Below are positions 3,102-52,758 of a stretch of 64,000 nucleotides of DNA, piece after piece. The stretch covers positions 3,695 to 67,694 of the forward strand of contig CAYVZU010000004.1 of assembly GCA_964455935.1 (NCBI GenBank), given 5' to 3'. Below the pieces are notes generated by a model, which made no database searches, was not told where the DNA came from, and saw only the letters and a list, made by a program, of their open reading frames with translations. The position numbers and the translations under genes were made by a program. This stretch comes from an uncultured Fibrobacterota bacterium. GTDB lineage: Bacteria; Fibrobacterota; CAYVZU01. The first letter of the stretch is position 1, and every line of letters begins with the position of its first letter.

Positions 3102-3127
3102 AGCTCCATCCTTTCCAGTTTGGATGA

Positions 3128-6268: not shown

Positions 6269-6792
6269 ACCATCTCTTTCTTTTCCACCTCGCGGTATTG
6301 CTGCAAGATCTGGCGGACTTTTGCGGGCTTAACGCGTTGATGGACCGTATCGTTGACCATAATAACCGGCGCCAAACCGCACGCGCCGAAGCAGCGCCCG
6401 ATTTCTAGGGTAAAAAGGCGGTCCGCCGAGGTTTCTCCGACGTCAATGCCCAGGTCTTTTTTTATGGCTTCCAGCACATCATTACCGCCGCGAACATAGC
6501 ATGCCGTTCCCAGGCAGACGCGGACCGTATATTTCCCGCGCGGAACAAGGGAAAAAAAAGAGTAAAAGGTAATTACGCCCTGAATCTTTGAAAGGGGAAC
6601 ATTCAACTTGCTCCCAATCCGCCGGACCGCTTCGTTCGGGACGTATCCGAACATTTTTTGCGTCTCCTGAAGCGCCGGGATCAGGGGGCTTTGTACGGAT
6701 TTGTATTCCTCCAGTTTGGCGTCCAGGTCGTCCAGAAGGATTTTCTCCTTTTCCGTAAGCGCAAATGCGCTTCGGTTTGCTTTCTTTTCCAT
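6259..6792 (-). CDS. NuoE-like thioredoxin-like [2Fe-2S] ferredoxin subunit (FdsG/HoxE-like)
   Basis: A 177-aa protein with CLGTACYV...CFGACGLAP, the NuoE 24-kDa signature. Its stop overlaps the start of the NuoF-fusion gene, suggesting translational coupling. Confidence 0.8.
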   Translation of the reverse strand: MEKKANRSAFALTEKEKILLDDLDAKLEEYKSVQSPLIPALQETQKMFGYVPNEAVRRIGSKLNVPLSKIQGVITFYSFFSLVPRGKYTVRVCLGTACYVRGGNDVLEAIKKDLGIDVGETSADRLFTLEIGRCFGACGLAPVIMVNDTVHQRVKPAKVRQILQQYREVEKKEMVCA

Positions 6793-6822
6793 TATTCCAG
6801 CTCCCCAAAAATGATTAATTCG

Positions 6823-8121
6823 TTACGCATTGGACTTCGCCGCGTAAGGTTTGTTGCCGGCAATGAAAGAAAGCAGCAATCCGATTGCAAGCACAATCGC
6901 CCCAAACGCAAAGGAGTAGTAGGCGGCATTTGCGGGGCGCAAATCCGAAATGACCGCAACAACCTGGGGGCCCACAATTCCCGCCACCGACCAAGCCGTA
7001 AGAATCGATCCGTATACGATCGGCATCATTTTGGCGCCGAATACCGTGGTAACAAAAGAGGGCATCGTGCCGAATCCGCCGCCATAGCAAAGCAGGATAT
7101 AGCAAATCAGAATTGCAAATACCCAAGGATTCGAAACGAACATGAGTGATATGAAGGCCAGCACCTGGGTTGTAAGCATGATCCGAAAAACCTGTATTCT
7201 TCCGAGTTTATCCGAGGTTCCTCCCCAGAAAAAGCGACCTATGCCATTGAAAAGTGAACTGACGGCGATCAGTGTCGCGCCAATCGCGGCCAACGCTGCT
7301 GCATCGAGGTTGGGATTTGCGGCTTTTGCGAAACCCTGCATAAGAGGGGATTGAAAACCGATGATGGCGATCCCAGCACAGATATTGCAGAAGAAAATTA
7401 GCCACATAATGAAAAAACGACCGCTAAACACATATTCCAAAAGGGTTCCTGAACGTTCATCCACCTGTGCGGATGCGGCCGTTGGCTTGGAAGCGGCGTT
7501 TTGGGCCGCTGGAACGGTATAGCCGGCCGGGGGATTTTGTAGAAAAAATCCGGCAAACATGGTCAGGGCCATGAAAACCAGGCCCAGGTAAGCGAAAACC
7601 TGGACCAGATTGCCGTGAGTGGCCGAAAGCAGCATCGGCGCGAATACTTTGCTCATCAGCAAGGCGCCCAACCCAAAGCCCATGACGACCATTCCCGTAA
7701 TAAAGCCCCGCTTGTCGGGAAACCATTTTGCCGCGGTCGCCACAGGCGTAACATAACCCAGTCCCAGTCCGCATCCGCCAATGACTCCGTATCCAATGTA
7801 CAGCAAAACAAGCGATTGATTTCGCAGCGCAAGAGCGCCCAAAAGGTATCCCAATCCAAAGAGAAATCCGCCGGTCATCGCCAATTTTCGAGGACCATAT
7901 TTGGCCAGATTAACTCCGCCCCAGGCGGCCGAAAGGCCAAGGAAACAGATCGCAAGGCTAAAAGCCCAAGCCGCTTGCGAGTTGCTCCATTGGTAAGTGG
8001 CGGTCAGGGGCTTCTGGAAATAGCTCCAGGCATAAACCGTTCCGAGCATAAGTTGAAGCGCCACGCCGGCGAAGGCTACTCCCCATCGATTCTGCACGGC
8101 CGTCTTTGAACCTCGTTCCAT
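6823..8121 (-). CDS. MFS transporter, oxalate/formate antiporter (OFA) family
   Basis: A 432-aa, 12-TM protein. Its N-terminus (RWGVAFAGVALQLMLGTVYAWSYF) is characteristic of the OFA family. It lies 30 nt upstream of the NuoE-like gene and is first in the fdh operon. Confidence 0.8.
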   Translation of the reverse strand: MERGSKTAVQNRWGVAFAGVALQLMLGTVYAWSYFQKPLTATYQWSNSQAAWAFSLAICFLGLSAAWGGVNLAKYGPRKLAMTGGFLFGLGYLLGALALRNQSLVLLYIGYGVIGGCGLGLGYVTPVATAAKWFPDKRGFITGMVVMGFGLGALLMSKVFAPMLLSATHGNLVQVFAYLGLVFMALTMFAGFFLQNPPAGYTVPAAQNAASKPTAASAQVDERSGTLLEYVFSGRFFIMWLIFFCNICAGIAIIGFQSPLMQGFAKAANPNLDAAALAAIGATLIAVSSLFNGIGRFFWGGTSDKLGRIQVFRIMLTTQVLAFISLMFVSNPWVFAILICYILLCYGGGFGTMPSFVTTVFGAKMMPIVYGSILTAWSVAGIVGPQVVAVISDLRPANAAYYSFAFGAIVLAIGLLLSFIAGNKPYAAKSNA

Positions 8122-8696: not shown

Positions 8697-9497
8697 TCAG
8701 TTATACCCGTGCAGCCCGCCCAGAACCAGCGTGGCAAAAATGGTTGCCAGCACGCAAATGAACCCCAAGAGACTTAAAAGAACCGTCGGCATGCCGCGCC
8801 AACCTCGAATCCAACGGGCATGCAGGTATATAGTATAGACCAGCCAGATGATCAGCGCGCCGACTTCCTTGGGGTCCCAACTCCAGAAGCTGCCCCAGGC
8901 CTGATGCGCCCAAATAGCCCCGGCAAAGAGCGCACCAACGGTGAAAAGCGGGTATCCCGCGGAAATCGCTTTGTATTCAAACTGGTCGATGAGAACCCAA
9001 TCCGGAAGCCTCCGGCCCAAGCGGCTGTGCATCGGGACAGCCCGCTTTAGGAGGAACAGAAGACTCGCGCCAAAGGCCACGGCAAAGGCCGCTTCACCTG
9101 CGGCCGCCAGGGTCACGTGAATCGGCAGCCAGATGCTTCTCAAGGCCGGCACAAGCTGGGCCGAAGGCTCCTTGGGGAGAAGCGAGGCCGCGGCCACAAG
9201 CATGAACACGATCCAGGCAATGGCCGTCTCGAATTCGGGCCTGCGGAATTTCACCATCGCGACGAAGTAAAAGATGGCAGTGGCCCAGGAAAGGAGACCA
9301 AGATATTCGAAAAGGTTCGTGATGGGTAGATGGCCCAAGGCGAATCCGCGGCGGCCCAAGGCCAGGCTCTCCACAATCAATCCGGCAGCCATCGACAGCT
9401 CGGCCGTAAGGCCGATTTTTCTATGCCTCACCACAATGTGAGCCGTGTGCAGGAGACAGGCAGTGCCATAAAGCAGAAAGCAGGTCCGGAAGAGCAC
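8697..9497 (-). CDS. ccsA: Cytochrome c biogenesis protein CcsA (ResC), System II heme-handling WWD protein
   Basis: A 266-aa polytopic protein with WAHQAWGSFWSWDPKE (tryptophan-rich WWD motif) and conserved His residues. Confidence 0.8.
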   Translation of the reverse strand: MLFRTCFLLYGTACLLHTAHIVVRHRKIGLTAELSMAAGLIVESLALGRRGFALGHLPITNLFEYLGLLSWATAIFYFVAMVKFRRPEFETAIAWIVFMLVAAASLLPKEPSAQLVPALRSIWLPIHVTLAAAGEAAFAVAFGASLLFLLKRAVPMHSRLGRRLPDWVLIDQFEYKAISAGYPLFTVGALFAGAIWAHQAWGSFWSWDPKEVGALIIWLVYTIYLHARWIRGWRGMPTVLLSLLGFICVLATIFATLVLGGLHGYN

Positions 9498-9501
9498 GAC
9501 A

Positions 9502-10650
9502 TCAAGGCCGTTCGTAAGAACCTCCCAACTCCGGCACGGAGCGTTTCACAAAGGAGACAAGAATAAGGCCGGCACAGCTTAGGGTGATCGCGATCCAGAC
9601 CAGAAGTTCGGCCGGATTTCGCTTGATCTGAATTCCCGAGGAATAGGCCGGCCGATAATCAACAAGAGCAACATCGAAACTCGTTCGGCTTCCATGAAAT
9701 GTCGGGTGCCGGGCAAAAACCCAACCATTGAAAACCGTATCCGCTTCTCGCACAACAACCGTTCGAAGCGCTGGGTTGCGCGACTGCTTCGATCGCGAAT
9801 AGGCCTGGCGTGTGCGGAGGTCAAAGGCAAAATCTGCGAGGAAGCGATCCAAATGAATCGAAAGGGATTCGGCTATTTGAACTGTCCGGCCATAGGGTAT
9901 GGTGCCTGTGTAGTTCAACCGGGGTCCCGTTATGTTTAGGGAGGCGCTGTCAATGCATTCCGGATCTTCCACATAGGTCATTTGGTAGAAACGGAACCCG
10001 TTAAATTTTGCCGGACGATTCACCTCGGTCGTCAGACGGGCCAGGACCTGCCCTTGGCCGGACAAAAAAGTTAGGTCCGTCTGATAATTGCGGATTGCGC
10101 CTTTCTCATCTTGATCAATACGAAAGCGGTCGGCGCGGACTTGGAAAGACAGGCCCGGGATGGGAATGGCTTCACCGGGCCGCATCTGCACCAGACGGTC
10201 GAATCCAAATCGGCTCAGATATCCGGCAATCAGAAAGAGAACCAATGAAGAATGGAATACCGCCGAACCGATTGTGCGCCAGAACACCCCGGCCTTGGGG
10301 CCGCGATCCGGTTTTGAATGACTCACCGAACCGACGGCTTGAATCGCACGGCGAATACCGCATACCGCCAGTTGAACTCCCAGGAGACCCAGGAGAAACA
10401 AAAAGAGGGGCGAGTCGAACATGCGGTCGAAGCCCGCAAATCGAACCAGCGCAGACCCCGCCCTTCCAAGAAGACGCCGGTGCTGTTCCGGCGAAAGATT
10501 CTGGGGAACAAGGATTCCAACAACCGAGAGCAGGGCGATGCCGGCCGCGACAGCCATGCCCCCCCGCATGGAAAGAAACCGGTTCACGGTCAGAACATTC
10601 CCTTGCCCATTTGCACCAGGAAATATTCCCCCGCGGCAATCATCAGCCAA
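9502..10650 (-). CDS. ccsB: Cytochrome c biogenesis protein CcsB/ResB
   Basis: A 382-aa protein with ResB-family architecture: an N-terminal TM helix ending in VPQ, a large periplasmic domain and C-terminal TMs. The start is uncertain (10650, 10569 or 10557). The longest form overlaps the ccdA 3' end. Confidence 0.7.
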   Translation of the reverse strand: MADDCRGGIFPGANGQGNVLTVNRFLSMRGGMAVAAGIALLSVVGILVPQNLSPEQHRRLLGRAGSALVRFAGFDRMFDSPLFLFLLGLLGVQLAVCGIRRAIQAVGSVSHSKPDRGPKAGVFWRTIGSAVFHSSLVLFLIAGYLSRFGFDRLVQMRPGEAIPIPGLSFQVRADRFRIDQDEKGAIRNYQTDLTFLSGQGQVLARLTTEVNRPAKFNGFRFYQMTYVEDPECIDSASLNITGPRLNYTGTIPYGRTVQIAESLSIHLDRFLADFAFDLRTRQAYSRSKQSRNPALRTVVVREADTVFNGWVFARHPTFHGSRTSFDVALVDYRPAYSSGIQIKRNPAELLVWIAITLSCAGLILVSFVKRSVPELGGSYERP

Positions 10651-11300
10651 CCCAGGGCCTTTTTAATCCGGACCATCCAGGCGCCCGAACGCGGCATATG
10701 CGCGAGCAGCCCCGCAAACGTCCCCACCAGGATCAGCAAAGCCCCGAGCCCAATCGCGTATACAAACAGAAGACTGGAACCATACACAAAGCTCCGGGTT
10801 GTGCCGGCATAGGCCAGGACCACGCCCAGCACCGGCGCGGTGCAAGGAGAGGCGACCAGTCCAAAGACAATTCCCATCAGGAGCACATTGGCGTACTTGC
10901 CGCCCTGCCGGTCGGCTTCCTGCAATTTCGAAAGAAATCCGGGCAAACGGATTTCGTACACACCCAGCATGCTGAGGCCCAGCAGGATGCAGATATTCGC
11001 AACAAGAAACGACACCCAGGGACTACTGCTGATCTGGCCAAACAGCGTACCCGTTCCAACGGCAATCAGGCCAAGAGCCGAATAGGTCAGCGCAATTCCA
11101 ACAACAAAAACCAGGGACAAAAGAAACGATTGCAGCCTTGAGGATTGTTTCTGGCCCGCAATGATGCCAACCGTGATGGGAATCATGGGATAGATACACG
11201 GTGTGAGGCTGGACAATACGCCTCCAAGCAGTACCATCAGGTAGGCCGTCATCTTGCCTTGTGCCAAATACATCTGCAGAGATTGAATGATTGCGTCCAT
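10590..11300 (-). CDS. ccdA: Cytochrome c-type biogenesis thiol-disulfide transporter CcdA (DsbD core)
   Basis: A 236-aa protein with six TMs and two conserved Cys (SLTPCIYPMIP and VASPCTAPVL). Confidence 0.8.
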   Translation of the reverse strand: MDAIIQSLQMYLAQGKMTAYLMVLLGGVLSSLTPCIYPMIPITVGIIAGQKQSSRLQSFLLSLVFVVGIALTYSALGLIAVGTGTLFGQISSSPWVSFLVANICILLGLSMLGVYEIRLPGFLSKLQEADRQGGKYANVLLMGIVFGLVASPCTAPVLGVVLAYAGTTRSFVYGSSLLFVYAIGLGALLILVGTFAGLLAHMPRSGAWMVRIKKALGWLMIAAGEYFLVQMGKGMF

Positions 11301-11309
11301 GGGAAACTC

Positions 11310-11789
11310 CTATTTGAGAAGCGCTTCAATCGCCGCCTCGATCTTCTTGCCTTCGTCGGGTGAATAGCCGCGGAATCGCTTGGCGATATTTCTATTCTCG
11401 TCAAGAATGATCAGCGAGGGGACGCCCTTTATGTCGTAAGGTTTTGTGGTTTCGCCCTTGGGATCCAGCAAAATCATATAACTGATCTGGGCCTTTTTCG
11501 CGAAGCCGGAAATCTTTGGGGACGGCTGCCGGTCCAGGTTGACGCCAACCACCTGAAGCCCTTGCGGTCCATATTTCTTCTGAAGGTCATTCAACGCCGG
11601 AAAGGCCTCTTTGCAGGTCTTGCACCACACAGCCCAAAAATCGAGAACAATGACTTTCGCTTTCAGGTCCTCCAAACGAACCTGATTTCCCTGCAGGTCG
11701 AATAGGCTGAATACAGGGGCCGGCGACGATGCGGTTGCATCGGCAAGAAGACCGGCGACGAACACCAATGTGGCCACGATCCGTTTCAT
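11310..11789 (-). CDS. resA: TlpA/ResA-like periplasmic thiol:disulfide oxidoreductase
   Basis: A 159-aa protein with a signal peptide and a thioredoxin fold carrying WCKTC (CxxC). Confidence 0.8.
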   Translation of the reverse strand: MKRIVATLVFVAGLLADATASSPAPVFSLFDLQGNQVRLEDLKAKVIVLDFWAVWCKTCKEAFPALNDLQKKYGPQGLQVVGVNLDRQPSPKISGFAKKAQISYMILLDPKGETTKPYDIKGVPSLIILDENRNIAKRFRGYSPDEGKKIEAAIEALLK

Positions 11790-11804
11790 GATTCCTCCTT
11801 ACTT

Positions 11805-13076
11805 CTAGAATGAGAACGCGACTCCGGCTTCGATCCAATAGGCTCGGAAGCCTTCGGAAATATCCCAGTAATTGTAATGCAAATCGCGTTCGACAATATC
11901 CGCCGTGCTCGAACGCAGGTAACGATCAAAACCGATATCAACGGTTGTCGGATACAGCGCCCAATAGGAGGACGCAGGCGGTTTGACGAAATCGCGCAGC
12001 TCAAAACTGACCTTGCCTCCGATGGTGTGAGCTGAAAATTCGCTGTGTTTGAAATCGGCGGTCATATAGGCCTGCGGGATCTCATAATAGGGCGCATAGA
12101 AAAACGCCTGGGTTTGCGCATAATACCGATAGTCCGGGCGAACGATGATGTTATCGAGAAATCGAAAATAGACCGCGATTCCCGCCGTGTGGCTTTTGAT
12201 ACCCCAACCATCTTCGTAGTAGCGGTAATCGGCCTGGATCGAAGAGCCATCCAGCAGAGGAACATACTGGTTCAGTTTCGCGACGACGGTCCCGCTTTTC
12301 TTGCTTTCGGGATAGTGCTCCTGATAAAATTGCATGACCCCGGCCCGTGGCCCGACCGACACAACGTAATACGGCCGGTCCAGATATCCGCTCTCGAATC
12401 CGTAGCCCAGAACGACGGATGCCACGGTGGTCAGCGTCAGCCCCTGTGTGAGACTGGCGGTGTAGGCAATGTTCTTGCGCCGGCCTTCTCCCAGGTAGTT
12501 CCAACTTGGATTCAGCGAGTCTGGCAAAAAGCGCTCGGGGGGATTGTATTGATCAAAATTCCGGTTATAGCGGAACCCAAGGGTTGTATTGCGTTCAAAA
12601 AGGTCCTGCGAGATCCCGGCCGAGATGGTGTAAGAACGATAGTCGCTTTCGCGGCTGTCCATGGCGGTTACGGAAATCACCGTGGGATTGTCGGAGTTGC
12701 CCCCGGATTTGAAAGCCTTCCAGAAATCGCGGGTATAGGAGAGAGTCGCGCTGTACTCCTTGCGCTGTTCACTTATGGGAGAGGCGGCCGTAATGGCATC
12801 CACGGGCAAAAGGGTTCCGCGATCTTCGCGCCGTGAAGCCGCGGTGATCGCATCCACCAGAAAACCCACGTTCAGGTTTGTGGATTCCGAGAGCTTTTTC
12901 GAAACATGGGCTGTGTTTGAGCGCACAATGCAGTTGTTGTTATCCTCATAGTACTGGAATTTGTAGGCCAGGCTATTTTCGGCTTCGATGATGCCGGCAA
13001 CCCCGAACAGAAGCGCAGCGGCGCAGCCAACCGTAACGAAGCTTCCGGCTCCCGCCCGCATTGTCAGCATCCGCAA
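11805..13076 (-). CDS. Putative outer-membrane beta-barrel protein, DUF3570-like
   Basis: A 423-aa protein with a signal peptide, an alternating amphipathic beta-strand pattern rich in Y/G/N/D, and a C-terminal ...AGVAFSF with terminal Phe (OMP signature). It lies immediately downstream of a DUF4266-like lipoprotein gene, the pairing reported for DUF3570. Confidence 0.5.
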   Translation of the reverse strand: MRMLTMRAGAGSFVTVGCAAALLFGVAGIIEAENSLAYKFQYYEDNNNCIVRSNTAHVSKKLSESTNLNVGFLVDAITAASRREDRGTLLPVDAITAASPISEQRKEYSATLSYTRDFWKAFKSGGNSDNPTVISVTAMDSRESDYRSYTISAGISQDLFERNTTLGFRYNRNFDQYNPPERFLPDSLNPSWNYLGEGRRKNIAYTASLTQGLTLTTVASVVLGYGFESGYLDRPYYVVSVGPRAGVMQFYQEHYPESKKSGTVVAKLNQYVPLLDGSSIQADYRYYEDGWGIKSHTAGIAVYFRFLDNIIVRPDYRYYAQTQAFFYAPYYEIPQAYMTADFKHSEFSAHTIGGKVSFELRDFVKPPASSYWALYPTTVDIGFDRYLRSSTADIVERDLHYNYWDISEGFRAYWIEAGVAFSF

Positions 13077-13291
13077 CCCCCGCCTGCGCCGCCGTAGCCG
13101 CCTGCGCTGCCTTCCCGTCGCGGGTAGATGTGATTCTTTAGCGCGGACTCCTGTTCGTCCTTATCGAAGTACATGATTGGGTCGCCCAGATACTGGCGTT
13201 GCCATTGCATGATCGTGAAACAACCGCTCAGCCCCAAAGCCAAGATGGTCAGGAAGAGAAAAAGGAGAGCGCGCAGGAATCTATTCTTCAT
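13064..13291 (-). CDS. Small lipoprotein, DUF4266-like
   Basis: A 75-aa protein with a lipobox (LGLSGC) and a Gly/Cys-rich C-terminus (GGAGGGCGC). It is the usual partner of DUF3570 genes. It overlaps the barrel gene start. Confidence 0.5.
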   Translation of the reverse strand: MKNRFLRALLFLFLTILALGLSGCFTIMQWQRQYLGDPIMYFDKDEQESALKNHIYPRREGSAGGYGGAGGGCGC

Positions 13292-14340
13292 TTCCAGTAC
13301 GTCTTTTTGTAAAGGGATGACGACGGGTCACCTCCACCGTGGCAGTCCACATTCGAGCAACTCTTTTCAGCCGCGTTCCAGGCAAACATCGTATCATGCC
13401 CGGGGGTTGCCGCGTTTATGAAACGATTATAGAAGGAAACGTCCTTGGCGCCATTCATATGATGGGCCGTGTTGACCAGCGGAAGAGTATCTCCGTCAGG
13501 TGTTAAAAACACGGTCTGGCCATACCGCACGCGCGGTCCGAACTGCGTGGAGTCAATTGCACTGTCGTAGGCTACGGTTTGGAAGTGGCACTCGATGCAC
13601 TGCCGAATATCGCCGGAGGAATTGCGGGAGACATGAAGGGAATGCAGCCCGGCCATGGGCTTGTAGTCATGGCACGAATTGCATCGACCCAACTGGACCG
13701 ACTCCATCCGGAAGTCCGCTTGGCCGTTGCGGTGCAATGAGTCGATCAGCGAAAATGTATCCGCGCCGTTGAAACTGAATTCATCATGAACGAGCCAGGC
13801 AGCCCGGCGGGTTGTCACAAGGGTGTTGCTGGGTCTCTGAATGTAGGTGGCAACCAACGCGGAGTCTTTTTGAACTGCCCCGGCATGACAAGCAAAGCAG
13901 TTGCCCGCGAAGGATTTGGACATGGGCAGCAGAGAATCCCATTGGCACTTTGGCGAGGGAACCGTATGGCACATAGCGCAGTGCATGGGGCTTGCGGCGG
14001 TATCAAGCCGATCATTCGCATGGAGCCTTCCTGTCCGGGGTTTTTCTTCGCCGTCGATTACATCCGAAGCATCGAAATAGACGAAGTGGTTCGAGGCCGG
14101 ATCCAATGCACTGTCAAGCTGGATTGCATCCCAATGGCAGGCCACGCATTGCGAGTGAGTCGCTCCTTGAACCAGGACGGCCGTGTCTTTGCATGACACG
14201 CCGGGATAATGATGGCACTGATCACAGGAAACCTGTTTTGGCAGAGAACCCGAAACAGGTTCGAACCGCTCAATACAGCCCGCGGCCAAGGCAACGGCCA
14301 CTATGGGAAGCAAAGCGGGTCTGGCGCATCGCCTTTTCAT
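13288..14340 (-). CDS. Multiheme cytochrome c lipoprotein (6 CxxCH plus one CX4CH motif)
   Basis: A 350-aa protein with a lipoprotein signal (LAAGC). Heme-binding motifs are CDQCH, CVACH, CAMCH, CFACH, CNSCH, CIECH and CSNVDCH. Its start overlaps the upstream gene's stop (ATGA). Confidence 0.8.
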   Translation of the reverse strand: MKRRCARPALLPIVAVALAAGCIERFEPVSGSLPKQVSCDQCHHYPGVSCKDTAVLVQGATHSQCVACHWDAIQLDSALDPASNHFVYFDASDVIDGEEKPRTGRLHANDRLDTAASPMHCAMCHTVPSPKCQWDSLLPMSKSFAGNCFACHAGAVQKDSALVATYIQRPSNTLVTTRRAAWLVHDEFSFNGADTFSLIDSLHRNGQADFRMESVQLGRCNSCHDYKPMAGLHSLHVSRNSSGDIRQCIECHFQTVAYDSAIDSTQFGPRVRYGQTVFLTPDGDTLPLVNTAHHMNGAKDVSFYNRFINAATPGHDTMFAWNAAEKSCSNVDCHGGGDPSSSLYKKTYWK

Positions 14341-15134
14341 CTCTTCATCACAAGAACGGGTTGGCGGACAAGCTGACCTTGGAATTCCGCTATGGCCACG
14401 TAGACGCCGTCCTTCAGGCCTTGGACGGGAACACTCTTTTCCGCGGAGGAGACTGATCTTTCCAGATATCGCCGAGCGATTTTCCCCTGAAGATCACAGA
14501 TTGTCAGAGCCAATGGCGCCCCAATTGCGCCGGCGGGAAGCGAGAGCGTTAATACGCCGGATTTTGCCGCAATGCGAGCCTTAAGGCTGGGTTTCCCGGG
14601 GATGGTGTTTATTACGGACGAAGTCGTATCTGTGACTGTTACCGAAATATTGGTAAGAAATGTGGACCCGCTGTTGGCCGAGGAGTCGTATCCGGTGCGG
14701 GAATGGGAATGGCCGTCGATCACGATATTGCCGCGAACCAAGGGGCCCGGCGGGTCGATTGAATTGGAGTGGTCCTCGGTCATTTCGATACAGTACCGGT
14801 AGGTCCCGTTTGCGACGCGCTGTCCGTTCTGGTTAGTCAAGTTCCAGGTTGCTGAGATAGTCCCATGAACATTACGGGTGGCACCTGTCAGGCCGTCTAC
14901 ATCCATGCTGCTTGCGGCTTTCCAGGAGACCAAGTCGTTCTTGCGTTCGGCTGCCCATATCCCGATCGTTTTCACAAACTGGCCAGACGCGTTCTGCATC
15001 CAGACCGCAACCAGGTTCTTTGGGGCCTCGCGGCCGTCGTAGGTTCTTGTTGTCGCGGTGACCCGCAGGCTCCCCGCCAAAGCGGTTGAACTCAACATGC
15101 AGAGCCCCACCCCAATCAGGCAAAAGACTTTCAT
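14337..15134 (-). CDS. Secreted DUF2271-domain protein with T9SS-type C-terminal sorting domain
   Basis: The start is trimmed to MKVFCLIG, which has a signal peptide and RBS GGGGAGGG. The DUF2271 region reads VAVWMQNASGQFVKTIGIW...VDGLTGATR. The C-terminal approximately 70 aa (ICDLQGKIARRY...GLKDGVYVAIAEF) resemble Por/T9SS sorting domains. Confidence 0.55.
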   Translation of the reverse strand: MKVFCLIGVGLCMLSSTALAGSLRVTATTRTYDGREAPKNLVAVWMQNASGQFVKTIGIWAAERKNDLVSWKAASSMDVDGLTGATRNVHGTISATWNLTNQNGQRVANGTYRYCIEMTEDHSNSIDPPGPLVRGNIVIDGHSHSRTGYDSSANSGSTFLTNISVTVTDTTSSVINTIPGKPSLKARIAAKSGVLTLSLPAGAIGAPLALTICDLQGKIARRYLERSVSSAEKSVPVQGLKDGVYVAIAEFQGQLVRQPVLVMKR

Positions 15135-15156
15135 TTTCCCTCCCCGAAATTCCGGG

Positions 15157-15546
15157 TTATACAGAGACCCGTGATAGCCGGTATTGACAATCGCCGCAAT
15201 TTTTTGAACAAAAAGGGCAGCTAATGCCGGCATCGCGCAGGAAGGCCGCCAGTTCATGGCATTTGTCGGCGCGCGCTTTGCGGACAATGCACTTGGTGCA
15301 CCCTCGGCCTTTGCCCTTCATGGCTGCAAATTCCCAGCAGGACATCTGCTGGGGCTTTTTGGAAAAGAACGGTTCGAGACTGGCCCATAGTATTCGAAAG
15401 TGCCCGCCCGCGGTTCTTTTTGCCCTTACTTTTCCGCTTCGGATCCATTTCAAAACCGTATCCGGAGTCACCGAACAACAACGGGCTGCTTGACCTGTAG
15501 TAAGCGTCCCTTTGGCCATAATGGGTTTTATGGGTTTTCCTTCCAT
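15157..15546 (-). CDS. Small excisionase/MerR-type HTH DNA-binding protein with Cys-rich C-terminal domain (putative metal/redox-sensing regulator)
   Basis: This gene is hidden in the C-terminal third of a 320-aa track ORF. The HTH_17-like segment is LTTGQAARCCSVTPDTVLKWIRSGKVRAKRTAGGHFRI. Nine or more Cys follow, including CxxC and CPFCSKNCGDC. The start is ATG 15546 (possibly leaderless, with TATAAT 8 nt upstream) or ATG 15519. It is the first gene of the cytochrome/ccs operon. Confidence 0.5.
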   Translation of the reverse strand: MEGKPIKPIMAKGTLTTGQAARCCSVTPDTVLKWIRSGKVRAKRTAGGHFRILWASLEPFFSKKPQQMSCWEFAAMKGKGRGCTKCIVRKARADKCHELAAFLRDAGISCPFCSKNCGDCQYRLSRVSV

Positions 15547-15757: not shown

Positions 15758-16771
15758 GTGCACATGTCCGATGCACTTATTTCGCCGCAGGTCGGCGGCG
15801 CCCTGTGGGCGATTTCGGCCGGACTGCTTGCGGTCTCCGCCCGCAAATTGCGCAAAGAAGCCGACGACAGCAAGACGCCCCTGATGGCCGTGGCCGGGGC
15901 ATTCGTCTTTGCCGCGCAGATGATCAACTTCGCCATTCCCGGGACCGGATCAAGCGGCCACTTGGGAGGGGGCCTGCTTCTGGCAGTCCTGCTGGGTCCC
16001 TCCGCCGCGTTTTTGACCATCGCCTGTGTGCTCATGATCCAGGCGCTGCTCTTTGCCGACGGCGGCCTGCTTGCCCTTGGCTGCAATATCTTTAACATGG
16101 GATTTTTTCCGGCCTTCATCGCTTACCCGTTTATCTATCGCGGCCTCACCGCATCCAGCCTGTCGCAACAGCGAATTTTCTGGGGCTCGCTGGCCGCGGC
16201 CGTGACCGGCCTTCAATTGGGTGCTGTCGGTGTCGTTCTGCAAACCGTGGCTTCCGGAATTTCCGCGATTGACACGGGCCGGTTTCTTCTCTTTATGCAG
16301 CCTATTCATCTGGCCATTGGAATCGTTGAGGGTCTGGCAACGGCCGGCCTGCTGGTTATGCTGCAGAGAAACAGGCCGGGGCTTCTTGCGGCCAATGCCC
16401 GACCAGCCCGGAGCCGAAAAGCGGTGTTGACTCTTGCCGCGCTCACGCTGGCCGTTGCCGGGGTGGTGAGCTGGTTTGCCTCGGAAAACCCGGACGGCCT
16501 GGAATGGGCGCTGGAGAAAACAGAAACTGCGGGAACGATGACCGCATCCGGAATCCACGGCCTTCTGGGCCGTGTCCGGACCGGCACGGCTCGCCTGCCG
16601 GACTATTCGTTCAAGTCCGACAATCATGGAAATGGCGATGCCGTTTCCTCCGCATCCACCTCCACCGCTGGTCTCATAGGCAGTGCCGTGACACTGCTTG
16701 CGGCAGGCCTTATCGGGTACGGCCTGCGCCGGTTCGGCAGAAATTCGCGAACGCCGGGGCCAGGTCAATGA
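15758..16771 (+). CDS. cbiM: ECF transporter substrate-capture component CbiM/NikM fused to a C-terminal PDGLE domain
   Basis: The region MHMSDALISPQVGG...GSSGHLGGG is a CbiM/NikM core. PDGLEWALEKT and a final TM helix at the C-terminus form the PDGLE domain. The start is called at GTG 15758, with AGGAG 7 nt upstream, which yields the Met-His N-terminus that CbiM/NikM need for metal binding. The ATG at 15764 would lack His2. Confidence 0.7.
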   Translation: MHMSDALISPQVGGALWAISAGLLAVSARKLRKEADDSKTPLMAVAGAFVFAAQMINFAIPGTGSSGHLGGGLLLAVLLGPSAAFLTIACVLMIQALLFADGGLLALGCNIFNMGFFPAFIAYPFIYRGLTASSLSQQRIFWGSLAAAVTGLQLGAVGVVLQTVASGISAIDTGRFLLFMQPIHLAIGIVEGLATAGLLVMLQRNRPGLLAANARPARSRKAVLTLAALTLAVAGVVSWFASENPDGLEWALEKTETAGTMTASGIHGLLGRVRTGTARLPDYSFKSDNHGNGDAVSSASTSTAGLIGSAVTLLAAGLIGYGLRRFGRNSRTPGPGQ

Positions 16772-17577
16772 GCGCCATTGCAGCGGGAATTCTCGATGTG
16801 CGAAGGCTGGACGAACTCGCGCGCGCATCAAGCTTCGCGCACGATCTCGATTCGCGCGTGAAGCTGATTGTGACACTCCTATTCCTGGCAGCGATTGCAT
16901 CCTTTCGCGCGTACGAAACTTCGGCTTTGATCCCGTTCTTCCTTTTTCCTTTTGTCATGCTCTCCTTAGGAAACGTGCCGGCCCGACCCATTCTAAAGCG
17001 GCTTGCTTTTGCCGCGCCATTTGCGGTCTGTATGGGCGCCTTCAACCCTTTGTTGGACCGCGCGCCGTTGCTTTCGATTGGCGGCTTTTCCGTAAGCGCC
17101 GGCTGGGTTTCCTACCTTTCCATTCTCTTACGTTTCATACTGGCCGTCAGCTCCGTGCTGCTGCTGATTGCCGTTACCGGAATGGACCATGTCGCGGCGG
17201 CCCTGCGCAAACTTGGATTTCCAAGGCCCCTTGTCAACCAACTGTTGTTGATGTATCGGTATCTATTCCTTCTTTCCGACGAGGCGGAACGGATGATTCG
17301 CTCCCGAGCGCTCCGCGCTTTTGGCCGGCCGCTTGGGCTTGGGCAGTTCGGCTATCTGACCGGTACGTTGCTTTTGCGCACGCTCGACCGCGGCCGGCGA
17401 ATTCATGCCGCCATGGCGTCGCGCGGGTTCCACGGTGAGATCAGGATGTTTTCCGGATCGCGGCTGCGCGCCGCCGATTTTGTTTTCGCGGGCGGCTGGA
17501 TCGGTTACTTCGCCCTCTGTCGGGCCACGAATGTTGCGCACTGGATCGGCGCTCTGGCCTTTGGAGCGATGCAATGA
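16768..17577 (+). CDS. cbiQ: ECF transporter transmembrane (T) component CbiQ
   Basis: A 269-aa polytopic protein of the CbiQ family. It has ATGA overlap with cbiM upstream and with cbiO downstream. Confidence 0.75.
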   Translation: MSAIAAGILDVRRLDELARASSFAHDLDSRVKLIVTLLFLAAIASFRAYETSALIPFFLFPFVMLSLGNVPARPILKRLAFAAPFAVCMGAFNPLLDRAPLLSIGGFSVSAGWVSYLSILLRFILAVSSVLLLIAVTGMDHVAAALRKLGFPRPLVNQLLLMYRYLFLLSDEAERMIRSRALRAFGRPLGLGQFGYLTGTLLLRTLDRGRRIHAAMASRGFHGEIRMFSGSRLRAADFVFAGGWIGYFALCRATNVAHWIGALAFGAMQ

Positions 17578-18332
17578 GCCATCATCTGGTCGAGGCCGTC
17601 AATCTCGGCTATTTATACCCGGACGGAACCGAAGCCCTGAAACGTGTTTCATTTCGCATTGTCCACGGCGAGTCCGTTGCCATTGTCGGCCCCAACGGCG
17701 CGGGAAAATCGACCCTGCTCAATCATCTCAACGGAAGCCTGCTGGCGAGCTCCGGCGAAGCCCGCGTGGGCGGCATTCCCGTGCGCAAAGAAACGCTCTC
17801 TTCGGTTCGCAAAGCCGTTGGAATGGTTTTCCAAGACCCCGACGACCAACTCTTCATGCCTACGGTTATTGAAGACGTAACGTTTGGCCCGCTCAACCTT
17901 GGCCTGTCGCCCGAAGAAGCCCGGCTGCGCGCCCTGGAGGCCCTGCGCCAGGTCGGATGCGAGCACCTGAAAGACCGGCCGCCCTATCATCTTTCGAGTG
18001 GAGAGAAGAAAGCCGTCGCCATTGCCACGGTGCTTTCGACGCTGCCCGATGTTCTGGTGCTCGACGAACCCACAGCAAACCTCGACGCACGCCATCGGCG
18101 GCGCATCATCGATCTGATCCGCGGATTCCATCACACCCGCATCATTGCGACGCACGATCTCGATCTCGTGCTCGATGTCTGCGACCGCGCCATTCTTCTG
18201 AACAACGGCATCCTGGTGGCCGACGCCGCCACAGCCGAACTCATGCGCGACAAAATCCTGCTGGAGCAGCACGGGCTCGAACAACCGCTCCGGATGCAGG
18301 AATGTCCGCTGTGTGGAAAGCATTTGACGTGA
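17574..18332 (+). CDS. cbiO: ECF transporter ATP-binding protein CbiO
   Basis: The protein has Walker A (GPNGAGKST), an ABC signature ([12 protein letters not shown]), Walker B (VLVLDEP) and an H-loop. Confidence 0.85.
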
Positions 18333-18598: not shown

Positions 18599-20530
18599 AT
18601 GCGGCTGCTGCATTCTTGTACGCTGTTGATTGGATTGACAACAATGGTCTTTGCCGCGCCGCCGGCCGGCACGCCCGCTCCTTCCGCAAAACCTCCCAAG
18701 CCAACTCCCGTCAGCAGCAAACCCGCGACCGCTCCGGAGCCGCCTGCAAGCGTCAGCGCGGCCGTTCCGCGCATGACCTTTGATTTCAAAGACACGGACA
18801 TCCGCGATATCGCCCGTTCCATTTCCATTGCCTATGGTCTTAACATCCTGATCGACAAGGATATCACGGTCAAGGTGACCGTGCATTTGACCGACGTTCC
18901 GGTCATGGAAGGCCTGCGCACGATTCTTGAATCCAACGGCCTGGCCCTAGTTCGCGAAGGCGATCTCTATCGCATCACCAAGCCGGTGGACCGAGGCAGC
19001 GCGGCGATCGATGCCAAGCGCGACACCATCAGTTTCAATATCAGCAACGTGGAAGTCAACGACTTCATCCGCGACATTTCAAGCAAAACGGGGATCAACA
19101 TCATCGCGGAAAAGAATGTCACCGGCCGGGTTTCCGGGTCGCTGCGCAATGTGGATGTGGAAGACGGGATCCGGGCTTTGCTGGAAGCCAACGGGTTTAC
19201 GATGCAGTACCGGGGCGAAATCCTGGTGGTGGGCATGCCATCCGAGGATGCCAAACGAAGGCCCGACCGGGAGGCCCGGCGGCTCGACGTGAGAGTAAAA
19301 GACAAGAAGGTGACCCTCGATCTCAAGGGCGCGGACCTGGGCGATGTATTAAAAGAGATCGCCGACCAGGGCAAGCTCGACATGATCACCTACGGAGCGG
19401 TCCGGGGCGAGGTCAACGCCAAATTGAAGGAGATGCCCATCGAGCATGCGGTCGCTCTCCTGGTTTCGGGGACGCAATACACCTTTGCCATTCGCGAAGA
19501 CATCTTGCTCATCGGCGACCGCAATGTCACCACCCCCTCCGGCCAGGCCTTGAGCATTGCCGAACTGGTTCACGTGAAACACATCAAAGCCGAGGGCCTC
19601 CCCAACCTTCTGCCCAAGACCATTCCAACGGGAAACGTTCAAGTCATTAAGGAGCAGAATGCAGTTTTAGTGACCGGTACCACGGACATCATTGCCCAAG
19701 TCAATGAATTCATTCGGCAAATCGACATTCCAACGCCGCAGATCATGATTGAAGCGGTCATTGTCGAATATGGGCGAGACCAGGGTCGCGAAGTGGGCGT
19801 ATCGGCCAGGTCGGGCCGCGGAGCCGACAGCCTGGAAATGCTCCTTCCCAGCATTGCTTACGGGGTCGGCGCCAGAACCCTCAATCCACGGCTGCCATCG
19901 GATATTGCGGGATTTAAATTCGGGACCGTAGGATTTCTGCCGGACGATTTTGTGATTCGGCTTCACGCATTGGAGCGCGACAAGCGCGCCAAAATTTTGG
20001 CGCAACCGCGCATTGCCACTCTTAACGGCAACAAGGCCTCCATCCATGTCGGCACAACGAGCTATTTCCGCCTGGCCGGCGGCACAACGACCGACCCCAT
20101 CACTCGTTTCCAAACCATCCAGTCCGGGATTACGCTCAACATTACGCCCTGGATTTCCAAAAGCGGGCAGGTCACGGCCGAAATCAGCCCCGAGGTCTCC
20201 AATACCACCGGCATCAACGAGGAAGGATTCCCCGATATTTCCGTGCGCAATGTCTCCACCACGGTGCGGCTCAACGACGGCGAGACGATTATCCTGGGAG
20301 GACTGATTCGCTCCGAGGACAAGAGCACGATCGAGAAAGTCCCCATCCTGGGAGACATTCCTCTGTTGGGATGGCTGTTCCGGTCCAAGATCGCGGCGAA
20401 ATCATCCAGTGAGCTGGCCATTTACATCACCCCTCACATACTGAATAAGGAAGACATTGTGGATATTGATAAAGAGCTGGAACAATTCAAGACACGATCG
20501 AATTCCGGCAAAGTTCCCGAACTCCGCTAG
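18599..20530 (+). CDS. Secretin (GspD/PilQ family) of a type II secretion / type IV pilus-like system
   Basis: A 643-aa protein with a signal peptide and a Pro/Ala-rich linker. It has N0/STN-like domains (FDFKDTDIRDIARSISIAYGLNILID...) and a C-terminal secretin domain (ILGGLIRSEDKSTIEKVPILGDIPLLGWLFRS). Confidence 0.8.
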   Translation: MRLLHSCTLLIGLTTMVFAAPPAGTPAPSAKPPKPTPVSSKPATAPEPPASVSAAVPRMTFDFKDTDIRDIARSISIAYGLNILIDKDITVKVTVHLTDVPVMEGLRTILESNGLALVREGDLYRITKPVDRGSAAIDAKRDTISFNISNVEVNDFIRDISSKTGINIIAEKNVTGRVSGSLRNVDVEDGIRALLEANGFTMQYRGEILVVGMPSEDAKRRPDREARRLDVRVKDKKVTLDLKGADLGDVLKEIADQGKLDMITYGAVRGEVNAKLKEMPIEHAVALLVSGTQYTFAIREDILLIGDRNVTTPSGQALSIAELVHVKHIKAEGLPNLLPKTIPTGNVQVIKEQNAVLVTGTTDIIAQVNEFIRQIDIPTPQIMIEAVIVEYGRDQGREVGVSARSGRGADSLEMLLPSIAYGVGARTLNPRLPSDIAGFKFGTVGFLPDDFVIRLHALERDKRAKILAQPRIATLNGNKASIHVGTTSYFRLAGGTTTDPITRFQTIQSGITLNITPWISKSGQVTAEISPEVSNTTGINEEGFPDISVRNVSTTVRLNDGETIILGGLIRSEDKSTIEKVPILGDIPLLGWLFRSKIAAKSSSELAIYITPHILNKEDIVDIDKELEQFKTRSNSGKVPELR

Positions 20531-20545
20531 CCTCTTTCCGAATCT

Positions 20546-21736
20546 ATGCTCGAAGTCCTTGATCCTGGAAAACGCACGGTCCTCTTTGACGACGTCCTGT
20601 TCTTTCACCGTCCCCGCCAGCCCCAGGACGCAGACCCCATCGCCTACCTGGAGGCGGAGATCGCGGGACTTCTGGGAGCTCAGGAAAGCCTGTCGGATGT
20701 CCTGTACCGATATCGGGAAACCGTCGACGGCTACCTGATCGGCCTGGCCCGGCGCAGCGCGATTCAGGGTCGCAGGCCCGATCCTCTTGTGGTCTGCCGT
20801 ATCCCTCACGCGGTCGCATTATGGCAACGGTTCGAGCAGATCCAGCCGCAGGCCGCTCCCATGGCTTTGCTTTATGTGCGCGATTTCGACCACCACTATA
20901 TTTTGACGGGCGATCGAACCGGGCTGTGCCGCGTGGCCAAGCTCAAGCCCACCCACCGCCTGGGCTATGATGTGTATTCGGCCGTTGAACGGGCTTGCCA
21001 GCTTCGGCCCGACCTGCGCGAAAACAAGCGACTGTATTGCGCGGGCGAAATTCCGGAATTCACCCGCGCGGCCCTGCTCGAACGCCATGTGGAAATCGTT
21101 CAGATCGTTCTTCCCAAGCGCCAGCAACTCGATCCGGCCCTGCTGCAGGAATGGGATTTCCGCCTGCCTCGGGAGGTCGAGGCGCAGATGCGATTTCACG
21201 AGGTGGTCAAAACGATACGGGTCGCCGCCATTTCGGCCGGTGTGATTCTGTCGGTCATCGCGATCCTCTTTGCCATGGAACGCGGCCTGGCCTGGCAGTC
21301 CGGAAAGAGCCGCCTGGTATGGCAAAGTCTCCAGAGCTCCTTGCGTGAGATGAATTTTCTGCGTACGCAGAACATGAACCAGATTTCCGAGCTCGCCATG
21401 GGCGTCCAGCTTTCCGGCATCCGGACAGGTCACGCCGCCGTGCTGCAGGTGCTGGCCGCCACAAGGCCGGCGCCGGTTCGCCTCGAACAGCTCACGCTTG
21501 CTCCATACCGGCAACGCGTTGCAGGCGGCGATTCGACTCCGGTGGTGGTCTACCGTCTTGAACTCAAAGGCCTTTGCGGGGCCGCCGGCCCGATCAGCGC
21601 ATGGATGGCCGCGCTCTCCGCGTCACCGCAGCTCGCGGGCGTCAAACTGATATCGGTGGAGCGCCGCGGAGAGGAACACGCATTCCGCATGGAATGCGAT
21701 GTGGCTGGTTTGGACCCAAAGGCGCGGGGACAATGA
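20546..21736 (+). CDS. GspL-like inner-membrane assembly protein (cytoplasmic domain, single TM, periplasmic domain)
   Basis: A 396-aa protein with one TM (VAAISAGVILSVIAILFAM) near residue 235, then a coiled-coil and a periplasmic domain. Topology, size and its position before a GspM/PilO-like gene match GspL. The call rests on architecture only. Confidence 0.35.
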   Translation: MLEVLDPGKRTVLFDDVLFFHRPRQPQDADPIAYLEAEIAGLLGAQESLSDVLYRYRETVDGYLIGLARRSAIQGRRPDPLVVCRIPHAVALWQRFEQIQPQAAPMALLYVRDFDHHYILTGDRTGLCRVAKLKPTHRLGYDVYSAVERACQLRPDLRENKRLYCAGEIPEFTRAALLERHVEIVQIVLPKRQQLDPALLQEWDFRLPREVEAQMRFHEVVKTIRVAAISAGVILSVIAILFAMERGLAWQSGKSRLVWQSLQSSLREMNFLRTQNMNQISELAMGVQLSGIRTGHAAVLQVLAATRPAPVRLEQLTLAPYRQRVAGGDSTPVVVYRLELKGLCGAAGPISAWMAALSASPQLAGVKLISVERRGEEHAFRMECDVAGLDPKARGQ

Positions 21737-21737
21737 A

Positions 21738-22643: not shown

Positions 22644-22733
22644 CATGCCGGTCGGGAACCCACGATATGAAAACTATGCTTTGCTTTCCGACCGCTGAAG
22701 CTCGGCGATTCCTTGGCCGCTAACCCTCTTTTT

Positions 22734-49717: not shown

Positions 49718-49720
49718 GAC

Positions 49721-52738: not shown

Positions 52739-52758
52739 AATTGATTTTCCTACCTGTT

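Follow-up and report, generated by a model that had tools for sequence, protein, structure and literature searches.

Gene content of the operon

The 64-kb stretch of DNA analysed here (the window) holds nine co-encoded genes, all on the minus strand (8697..15519), which form one operon. The first four encode a small excisionase/MerR-type HTH protein with a Cys-rich C-terminal half (15157..15519, alternative ATG at 15546), a secreted DUF2271 protein with a C-terminal T9SS-type sorting domain (14337..15134), a lipoprotein heptaheme c-type cytochrome (13288..14340) and a DUF4266 lipoprotein (13064..13291). They are followed by the genes for a DUF3570 protein, predicted to be an outer-membrane beta-barrel (11805..13076), a secreted TlpA/ResA-like thioredoxin-fold protein (11310..11789), a CcdA/DsbD-type transmembrane thiol-disulfide electron carrier (10590..11300) and two components of System II cytochrome c biogenesis, ResB/CcsB (9502..10650, probable start at ATG 10569) and the heme lyase subunit CcsA/ResC (8697..9497). 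Pfam and NCBIfam profiles and the reading of motifs bore out the initial annotation in its family assignments, heme motifs, lipoboxes and gene order, and in the association of an outer-membrane beta-barrel, a lipoprotein multiheme cytochrome and Ccs genes within one operon.

The HTH protein matched Pfam HTH_17 (E 4e-7) and exceeded the cutoff of the excisionase-type domain model TIGR01764. Its Cys-rich half contains 10 Cys, among them those of CPFCSKNCGDC, and the protein is a putative redox- or metal-sensing regulator. No homologue was found at any related locus; hence, it is part of the module in the window alone.

A predicted barrel with flavinylation motifs and its lipoprotein partner

The DUF3570 protein matched PF12094 with an E-value of 2.4e-38 (132.5 bits, cutoff 25), and its likely start is ATG 13070, giving 421 aa. 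Its structure was predicted as a 16-strand outer-membrane barrel that resembles PelB and PgaA, not MtrB, in agreement with the beta-barrel earlier proposed for the 423-aa version. The hydrophobicity alternation along the strands of the model was moderate (0.60 vs -1.24).

What had been overlooked were the flavin motifs, DAITAAS twice in the DUF3570 protein and DGLTGAT in the DUF2271 protein. The two DAITAAS copies (residues 75-81 and 93-99; nt 12834-12854 and 12780-12800) sit in the loop joining strands 3 and 4, the same loop in which the clade relatives have 2-4 copies of the flavinylation motif. The D, A and S columns of the motif are invariant across the clade, and the DAITAAS form is also present in the DUF3570 proteins of non-cytochrome loci. 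By standard topology and the long-loop pattern, the flavin loop would face outward; since its pLDDT is below 50, the model does not fix its position as outside, in the lumen or elsewhere.

The DUF4266 protein has an LSGC lipobox, matched PF14086 (E 2e-18) and ends in ...GGAGGGCGC, with a C-terminal CXC (CGC) at 13067-13075. This tail (...PRREGSSGGxxGAGGGCGC) was kept in all 12 readable orthologues and in L094, which together with L095 represents the closest relative of the operon.

The DUF2271 protein matched PF10029 (E 6.4e-13), and its DGLTGAT motif (residues 80-86, nt 14877-14897) fits the [S/T]GA[S/T] site. Its tail scored under the cutoffs of Por_Secre_tail (PF18962, 19.4 bits, cutoff 27) and TIGR04183 (17.1 bits, cutoff 23). 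Residues 190-262 were predicted as a beta-sandwich (pLDDT 72-87), and this C-terminal domain resembled the T9SS CTDs 8glk_D, 8gl6_D and 8qb1 (target-normalised TM 0.64-0.78), the fold matches having a probability of 1.0 and weak E-values (3e-3 to 1.5e-2). Sub-threshold T9SS-tail matches were likewise obtained for proteins of loci L006, L001, L007 and L015. The same domain with a [S/T]GA[S/T] site occurs in PepSY-like/DUF4198 clusters (PMC8238504). The window protein differs in being fused to the T9SS-type domain and in lacking those partners, both of which were absent in Pfam scans of the window; in some window relatives, an FN3 scaffold with the same motif replaces DUF2271.

The initial annotation considered DUF4266-DUF3570 a pair of unknown function. 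This part has to be revised, as a system of DsbD, a thioredoxin-like protein, DUF4266, DUF3570 and ApbE has been described by Méheust et al. 2021 (PMC8238504; eLife 10:e66878), who pointed out the CXC at the DUF4266 C-terminus and showed experimentally that ApbE flavinylates two sites in DUF3570 and one in DUF2271. The operon shares with that system a DUF3570 protein with two flavinylation motifs, a DUF4266 protein with a C-terminal CXC, the clustering of a secreted thioredoxin-fold protein with a DsbD/CcdA membrane protein and, in the closest relative, ApbE. It differs in that the clade adds a penta- or heptaheme lipoprotein cytochrome directly upstream of DUF4266 and has a T9SS-tailed flavoprotein as first gene, whereas in the window ApbE is missing, ResB-CcsA take its place and the thioredoxin belongs to Redoxin/AhpC-TSA rather than to PF13899. 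PMC8238504 makes no mention of an outer-membrane barrel or cytochromes for the DsbD/DUF3570 system.

No match to ApbE (PF02424) was obtained among the scanned ORFs of the window, and tblastn and iterated HMM searches of the window gave none either. Nor did ApbE turn up in the available DNA of the 15 cytochrome-type loci that the HMM survey included. Adjacency of ApbE is not universal: of 28 other DUF3570 loci, only 10 have it within ~3 kb. Motif conservation and the relative L094 suggest that the window proteins would be flavinylated.

A small family of multiheme lipoprotein cytochromes

The window cytochrome has an LAAGC lipobox and seven heme motifs, six CxxCH and a C-terminal CSNVDCH (CX4CH) at 13339-13359. 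The core of its family comprises four CxxCH plus the CX4CH in ~250 aa, with a di-heme unit duplicated in the window copy. A search of 1.84 billion proteins gave ~31 representatives with E below 1e-8, and neither sequence nor profile comparison found a relative in the PDB. The NCBIfam matches were all far under the model cutoffs, including that to the Geobacter-type CxxxxCH/CxxCH domain TIGR01904 (19.9 bits, cutoff 27). The CX4CH had been singled out as unusual: it is conserved in 10 of 12 members of the family, although TIGR01904 already records motifs of this type. The multiheme cytochrome family is small and previously undescribed.

Conservation of the cytochrome-DUF4266-DUF3570 module

The order cytochrome-DUF4266-DUF3570 was kept in 17 loci (the window, 14 from the HMM survey and L094/L095), mainly from Fibrobacterota MAGs. 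In L094/L095, whose DUF3570 is 52% identical to that of the window, the operon reads DUF2271-cytochrome-DUF4266-DUF3570-TlpA-CcdA-ApbE, with ApbE in the position that ResB-CcsA occupy in the window. The first gene was read in the window, L001, L002, L004 and L094. In all five its product is secreted, combines a flavinylation-like motif with a T9SS-like tail, and is built on DUF2271 in some and on FN3 in others; in L006, proteins with both features are encoded on the opposite strand. Accessory genes vary by locus, each supplying cofactor or reductant, such as heme biosynthesis genes in L002 and a thioredoxin reductase directly upstream of the module in L006. Two TonB-dependent receptors lie downstream of the module in L004, and an Rrf2 regulator lies beside it at the P0006 locus.

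Could a cytochrome plus Ccs unit simply have come to lie next to an unrelated DUF3570 flavin module? The missing ApbE in the window and the adjacency of ccsBA in only 3 of the 17 loci would be compatible with chance neighbours. We nevertheless disfavour this explanation as highly improbable: the cytochrome is immediately upstream of DUF4266 in 17/17 loci, with reading frames that overlap or abut; the family is tiny and shows the DUF4266-DUF3570 context at every locus examined; and cytochromes also adjoin DUF3570 independently at L015, L038 and L079. A clade pairing a lipoprotein multiheme cytochrome with DUF4266-DUF3570-TlpA, here at 17 loci, is new.

Thiol carriers and heme-attachment genes

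The four last genes had been read as a System II maturation set, resA-ccdA-ccsB-ccsA. This held for ccsB (PF05140, E 2.6e-31) and ccsA (PF01578, E 2e-40), the latter exceeding the equivalog cutoff of TIGR03144 (193.8 vs 187.6 bits). It was less clear-cut for the thioredoxin-fold protein (Redoxin, E 2e-25; active site CKTC at 11613-11624), which scored 87 bits with its best NCBIfam model, ResA (cutoff 170). The gene order resembles the canonical CcdA-ResA-ResB/CcsB-ResC/CcsA set, with ResB and CcdA (DsbD_TM, E 5e-51) as clear members, whereas the TlpA-like protein falls under the ResA cutoff and has CKTC in place of a proline-containing CxxC.

A TlpA homologue adjoins DUF4266-DUF3570 in 24 of 28 other loci, even in those without a cytochrome, and follows DUF3570 in every cytochrome-type locus with DNA reaching that far. 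The window CcdA is 58-64% identical to the gene in the same position in L001, L002, L004, L006 and L094. CcdA accompanies the module in most cytochrome-type loci, yet only 3 of 28 other DUF3570 loci have it nearby, and it could in part be there to mature the cytochrome and not to supply electrons. TlpA-CcdA remain with DUF4266-DUF3570 in relatives without ccsBA. As a near-universal partner that is retained without ccsBA, the "resA" thioredoxin is most likely a member of the flavin module. Given that the flavin motifs and the terminal CGC are kept, "resA-ccdA" most likely belong to the core of this module and do not serve maturation only. Within the set, ccsBA, adjacent in the window, L007 and L008, is the sole variable add-on.

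Wolinella succinogenes has dedicated System II heme lyases, NrfI for CX2CK and CcsA1 for CX15CH. The window is similar in having a ccs gene beside a cytochrome with a non-standard heme motif, CX4CH; it differs in that its CcsBA scores as an ordinary CcsA and the adjacent copy is missing in most relatives.

Comparison with known conduits

The proteins all fall outside the Mtr/Pcc families, as the initial annotation had anticipated. As in MtrCAB/PioAB/Pcc, a barrel is encoded with a lipoprotein multiheme cytochrome, here two genes upstream, and electron transport to the surface is plausible. An Mtr/Pcc-type conduit, in which the cytochrome would run through the DUF3570 barrel or plug it, with resA-ccdA-ccsBA only maturing the cytochrome and DUF4266 and DUF2271 as accessory proteins, would be in line with this joint arrangement together with Ccs genes, with the recurrence of Ccs genes close to the module at L007 and L008, and with sub-threshold matches to the OmcA/MtrC-type TIGR03507 and, for P0027 and P0028, to Mtrc-MtrF_II-IV_dom. 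However, the DUF3570 barrel is non-homologous and has 16 strands, against 26 in the solved Mtr complex 6r2q, and a periplasmic MtrA-type decaheme is missing, the only cytochrome being the lipoprotein with seven motifs. The candidate internal carriers would instead be covalent barrel flavins and a dithiol lipoprotein, and the proposed electron input a thiol relay, not quinol dehydrogenase cytochromes. We regard such a conduit as improbable.

A comparison on the flavin side is the extracellular electron transfer of Listeria, in which PplA is flavinylated by the ApbE homologue FmnB (PMC8238504). By analogy, a surface protein with FMN covalently attached in the ApbE manner would be a terminal electron carrier; the Listeria system differs in being Gram-positive and quinone-fed, without outer membrane, hemes or thiol relay.

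A possible relay from thioredoxin to the cell surface

With a probability of roughly 55%, the operon is a version of the ApbE-dependent DUF3570/DUF4266/thioredoxin/DsbD system for extracytosolic electron transfer that contains a cytochrome and comes packaged with the System II heme lyase for maturing that cytochrome. Electrons would pass from cytoplasmic thioredoxin to CcdA in the inner membrane, to the CKTC of the periplasmic TlpA-like protein and on to the CGC with which the DUF4266 lipoprotein ends. This dithiol would then reduce covalent FMN on the DUF3570 barrel loop in a two-electron thiol-to-flavin step comparable to that of flavocytochrome c sulfide dehydrogenase. From the flavins, single electrons would go to the heptaheme cytochrome, the T9SS-exported DUF2271 flavoprotein, or both, which at or beyond the outer membrane would reduce an external or surface acceptor. 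CcsBA would attach the hemes to the cytochrome. FMN would be attached in the periplasm by an ApbE from another part of the genome, ahead of the assembly of the barrel and the export through T9SS. What we infer is in which order the carriers act, which way the electrons flow, that the flavin loop points outward and that the cytochrome lies at the surface.

TlpA/DsbD pathways commonly feed periplasmic reductases. A thiol/flavin/heme chain could accordingly face the periplasm without crossing the outer membrane, the barrel being a mere membrane anchor or solute channel; it could then serve in assimilatory iron reduction, in peroxide/oxygen detoxification in an anaerobe or in the repair of oxidised envelope proteins. 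The low-confidence modelling of the flavin loop (pLDDT < 50) leaves room for this, and so do the TonB-dependent receptors in L004 and the redox- or Fe-S-type regulators next to the module, the Cys-rich HTH protein in the window and Rrf2 at the P0006 locus. The function of the DUF3570 system was left open in PMC8238504, with VIT1 iron transporters in 25 clusters. Yet the long-loop pattern sets the flavin loop on the outward side, the first gene has a T9SS-type export tail in several loci, and a lipoprotein and a barrel at the outer membrane suggest a role beyond the periplasm. We consider a periplasmic chain possible but rather unlikely.

Envelope electron transfer, as initially proposed, is the most reasonable role of the operon, and we consider a thiol-to-flavin-to-heme relay to the outer membrane or cell surface its best reading. 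Rnf needs ApbE. The cultured relatives live by fermentation, lack a respiratory chain and possess Rnf as well as Por/T9SS sorting domains (PMC4814513). A quinone-independent thiol route over the inner membrane fits such a lifestyle, and the operon may move electrons from the thioredoxin pool to the cell surface.

Gene organization of the minus-strand operon

Gene calls on the window placed nine tightly spaced genes on the minus strand, from 15519 to 8697, with junctions that either overlapped by 4-13 nt or were spaced by no more than ~22 nt. The Pfam and NCBIfam searches and the motif checks bore out every detail of gene order, protein families, heme motifs and lipoboxes described in the initial annotation. 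The first gene codes for an excisionase/MerR-type HTH protein (15157-15519), followed by a DUF2271 protein (14337-15134) that also gave a sub-threshold Por_Secre_tail match, a lipoprotein cytochrome with a Cytochrome_C7 match and an LAAGC lipobox (13288-14340), a DUF4266 lipoprotein with an LSGC lipobox and a C-terminal CGC (13064-13291) and a DUF3570 protein (11805-13076). The proposed placement of three of these proteins in the DUF2271, DUF4266 and DUF3570 families was confirmed with E-values of 6e-13, 2e-18 and 2e-38, respectively. The remaining genes encode a Redoxin/AhpC-TSA thioredoxin-fold protein of the TlpA type, initially called "resA" (11310-11789), a DsbD_TM/CcdA protein (10590-11300), ResB (9502-10650) and CcsA, which scored above the TIGR03144 cutoff (8697-9497). 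The scan for promoters and terminators performed no better than chance, and no Rfam or tRNA match was obtained.

The HTH protein contains 10 Cys residues, including those of the motif CPFCSKNCGDC, and this composition suggests a putative Fe-S or Zn site. A homologue of this regulator was found in none of the 95 related DUF3570 loci gathered for comparison (L001 to L095); the locus of the homologous protein P0006 has an Rrf2 regulator in its place. Divergent from the operon, and separated from it by a ~245-nt intergenic region in which no riboswitch was detected, lies a CbiM (with PDGLE domain)-CbiQ-CbiO ECF-type Co/Ni transporter (15765-18332, plus strand).

On the other side, 575 nt lie between CcsA and the following minus-strand gene, which encodes an L-lactate-type MFS transporter (6823-8121). 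Beyond it, still on the minus strand, we observed genes for a NuoE-like protein (6259-6792), for a fusion of a NuoF-like part with a GltD-type NAD(P)H flavoprotein (3128-6268) and for a molybdopterin oxidoreductase whose N-terminus is of the NuoG type (402-3194). As a set, these resemble a soluble, NAD(P)-linked complex of the formate dehydrogenase type. Elsewhere in the window, a secretin, PilO-like and pseudopilin cluster (18599-25059, plus strand) includes two large ORFs without a Pfam match (20546-21736 and 22713-24077), and a separate T2SSE/T2SSF pair occupies 48029-50986 (minus strand). The stretch 52000-58000 has a GC content of ~0.48, against ~0.56 elsewhere, and may be acquired DNA; besides a 430-aa ORF without a Pfam match, it encodes an fn3 protein, an AraC-TPR protein and an esterase whose C-terminus bears a FlgD_ig tail.

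The cytochrome belongs to a small lipoprotein family

Word-indexed homologue searches with the cytochrome and with the DUF2271 protein returned the query alone. When 1.84 billion representative proteins were searched exhaustively with HMMER, a cytochrome family of 31 proteins was recovered (E < 1e-8), mostly of ~240-260 aa, with one of 346 aa. The family core combines a lipobox with four CxxCH and, at the C-terminus, a CX4CH. The latter, which had been regarded as unusual, is a motif type already catalogued (TIGR01904) and is kept in 10 of the 12 aligned family members.

The cytochrome of the window has six CxxCH and a C-terminal CSNVDCH. Overlapping tblastn alignments revealed that its ~100 additional residues, with two more CxxCH, are a duplicated first di-heme unit (13669-14000, minus strand; residues ~115-215), which takes the number of hemes from 5 to 7. 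One other family member, the 346-aa protein P0027, also carries an internal di-heme duplication. Matches to named cytochrome families were all far below the cutoffs and no PDB chain gave a significant match by sequence or profile. Hence, NrfB, NapC and other known enzymes were rejected as identities for this protein.

The operon is a cytochrome-bearing variant of the "DsbD system"

The DUF3570 protein has nine close homologues, all metagenomic, with 41-52% identity, and identity to the others falls to 22-29%. Locus context was collected by combining homologue look-ups with scans of species-representative genomes and of metagenomes, using tblastn and iterated HMMs. A lipoprotein cytochrome directly upstream of DUF4266-DUF3570 was found in 17 loci, the window included, which we refer to as cytochrome-type loci. 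The species-representative scan yielded eight matching genomes, all MAGs, seven of which are labelled Fibrobacterota, Fibrobacteres, Chitinispirillaceae or Chitinivibrionales.

The closest homologue of the DUF3570 protein, P0002 (52% identity), is encoded in a seven-gene operon (L094/L095). This operon comprises, in order, DUF2271 (motif CIDGVTAAS), a lipoprotein cytochrome (lipobox, four CxxCH and CSNIECH), DUF4266 ending in GGGCGC, DUF3570 with three flavinylation motifs, TlpA, CcdA and a lipobox-bearing ApbE (PF02424). The ResB-CcsA pair of the window occupies exactly the slot of this ApbE. A combination of DsbD, a thioredoxin-like protein, DUF4266 (its C-terminal CXC was noted), DUF3570 and ApbE has been described as the "DsbD system", with its function left uncertain (Méheust et al. 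2021, PMC8238504). The operon is a cytochrome-bearing variant of this published ApbE/DUF3570 system; the variant occurs mostly in Fibrobacterota MAGs, and in the window it is joined to System II heme lyase genes. The initial interpretation is supported in part, as the operon is neither a porin-cytochrome conduit of a known type nor a module whose function is wholly obscure.

TlpA lies downstream of DUF3570 in every cytochrome-type locus whose contig reaches far enough, and it is followed by CcdA in the window, L001, L002, L004, L006, L094/L095 and the P0006 locus. Other genes vary at the edges of this common core: CcsA is present in L008, ResB and CcsA in L007 and an alternative heme-biosynthesis operon in L002, and in L006 a thioredoxin reductase gene is co-directional with and directly upstream of the cytochrome gene. 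Each accessory gene serves one of the three predicted cofactor systems, which attach flavin, attach or make heme, or provide thiol reductant. In L007 (3913-4885, plus strand), genes for a rhodanese-domain protein and a MauE/DoxX membrane protein come after ResB-CcsA, and no CcdA follows TlpA; this may be an alternative thiol-redox partner.

The operon had been read as containing a full set of System II maturation genes. This holds for ResB and CcsA; the thioredoxin-fold protein (active site CKTC) scored 87 bits against the ResA model, whose cutoff is 170. Since TlpA-type genes adjoin DUF4266-DUF3570 in 24 of the 28 loci without a cytochrome, "resA" is most probably part of the flavin module. 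CcdA is frequent in the cytochrome-type clade and rare outside it (3/28 sampled loci), and it may have a double role, reducing TlpA and DUF4266 on the one hand and the apocytochrome on the other.

Heme proteins also occur near DUF3570 outside the clade. In L015, two ApbE genes accompany those for a DUF2271 protein with a T9SS tail and for proteins with 5 and 9 hemes, and L079 (256-10104) encodes proteins with 16 and 17 CxxCH together with TrxB. L038 and L043 share the order ApbE-TlpA-DUF4266-DUF3570, heme-motif ORFs, ResB-CcsA-CcdA, with the intervening ORFs of L038 (803-9501) comprising heme ORFs with one and two CxxCH and an FG-GAP protein. These loci support the view that DUF3570 modules and c-type cytochromes are generally linked in function.

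Flavinylation signatures in DUF3570 and DUF2271

The DUF4266-DUF3570 pair had been described as of unknown function. Both DUF3570 and DUF2271 are in fact published ApbE substrates, and the pair is part of the described DsbD system; experimentally, DUF2271 is covalently flavinylated at one [S/T]GA[S/T] site and DUF3570 at two sites (PMC8238504). In the window, the DUF2271 protein carries DGLTGAT and the DUF3570 protein carries DAITAAS twice (12834-12854 and 12780-12800), the motif residues of DUF3570 being invariant across the clade. We considered whether the Gly-to-Ala change in DAITAAS could disable flavinylation and rejected it, as the Ala form dominates non-cytochrome DUF3570s. DAITAAS occurs in those only 22-29% identical to the window protein, so this form is normal for the DUF3570 family.

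ApbE was found neither in the 64-kb window nor in the sequence of 15 cytochrome-type loci in an HMM survey. Its adjacency is patchy in other DUF3570 loci, where it lies within ~3 kb in only 10 of 28 and within ~10 kb in 7 of 15, and its absence from the window is thus weak evidence against flavinylation. The Rnf complex requires ApbE. Rnf is present in cultured relatives (PMC4814513).

Predicted DUF3570 barrel and exported first-gene proteins

The DUF3570 protein was predicted to form a 16-strand barrel, with connections of 21-27 residues after strands 3, 7, 9, 13 and 15, and connections mostly of 4-5 residues, two being of 15, after even-numbered strands. These lengths fit the pattern of outward loops and periplasmic turns, and the strand 3-4 connection, which carries the flavin sites, would hence point outward or be folded into the lumen. 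This flavin loop was modelled with pLDDT < 50 and expands in relatives to hold three or four motif copies. Strand hydrophobicity was compatible with a membrane barrel, albeit not decisive, and no description of DUF3570 as an outer-membrane barrel was found in the literature searched. Flavinylated DUF3570 was recovered in the insoluble pellet and purified after denaturation (PMC8238504), which suggests that a properly folded barrel is perhaps not needed for flavinylation.

Within the clade, the gene preceding the cytochrome (the first gene of the module) encodes DUF2271 in the window, L002, L003 and L094/L095, and in L001 and L004 an FN3 scaffold whose N-terminal part carries DA[IV]TAAT. L006 has three paralogous secreted FN3 proteins on the strand opposite to the module (3737-7583, minus strand), with T9SS-like tails and a deviant flavinylation-like motif at their start (CTAVDAITTST); one of them is a fusion that also includes Ig repeats and a DUF2271 domain, the latter with VDAVTSPT. 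All of these proteins share a C-terminal beta-sandwich tail with sub-threshold Por_Secre_tail matches. In the single-sequence AlphaFold2 model of the window DUF2271 protein (pLDDT 46), this tail was the sole confident part, and it matched solved T9SS CTDs. Por/T9SS sorting domains are in use among relatives of the lineage (PMC4814513).

A putative thiol-flavin-heme relay

The best-supported reading of the operon is a thiol-flavin-heme relay, for which carrier order, flow direction and surface exposure are all inferred. Electrons would pass from cytoplasmic thioredoxin to CcdA, then to TlpA and to the CGC of DUF4266, which would reduce the FMN on DUF3570. From there they would move on to the cytochrome hemes or to FMN on the exported DUF2271 protein, or to both of these, and finally to an acceptor at the cell surface. 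Flavocytochrome c sulfide dehydrogenase offers a precedent for a thiol-to-flavin-to-heme c chain. Cultured relatives are fermenters without a respiratory chain (PMC4814513), and for such organisms a thiol route through the inner membrane would be fitting. Compared with porin-cytochrome complexes, the relay, if working, would be a second architecture for moving electrons across the outer membrane.

A bolder version, which we put forward tentatively and with the odds against it, is a "flavin wire". This would be a new class of trans-outer-membrane conduit, in which a loop with 2-4 covalent FMNs, instead of a multiheme cytochrome, runs through the 16-strand barrel. The Gly-rich CGC tail of the small lipoprotein would feed these FMNs from the periplasm, and electrons would continue to a surface lipoprotein cytochrome and the T9SS-exported flavoprotein. 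If true, fermentative Fibrobacterota without a quinone-based respiratory chain would spill reducing power of the thioredoxin pool onto external acceptors.

The clade provides three clues to the function of DUF3570 systems. The flavoprotein DUF3570 is predicted to form a barrel in the outer membrane, with its flavin sites on an outward loop; in the clade it always occurs together with a dedicated lipoprotein cytochrome and usually also with a T9SS-exported flavoprotein. If the thiol-flavin-heme relay works as proposed, thiols, flavins and hemes would together make up a quinone-independent path of extracellular electron transfer, and this would explain why lineages deemed purely fermentative have kept c-type cytochrome maturation genes.
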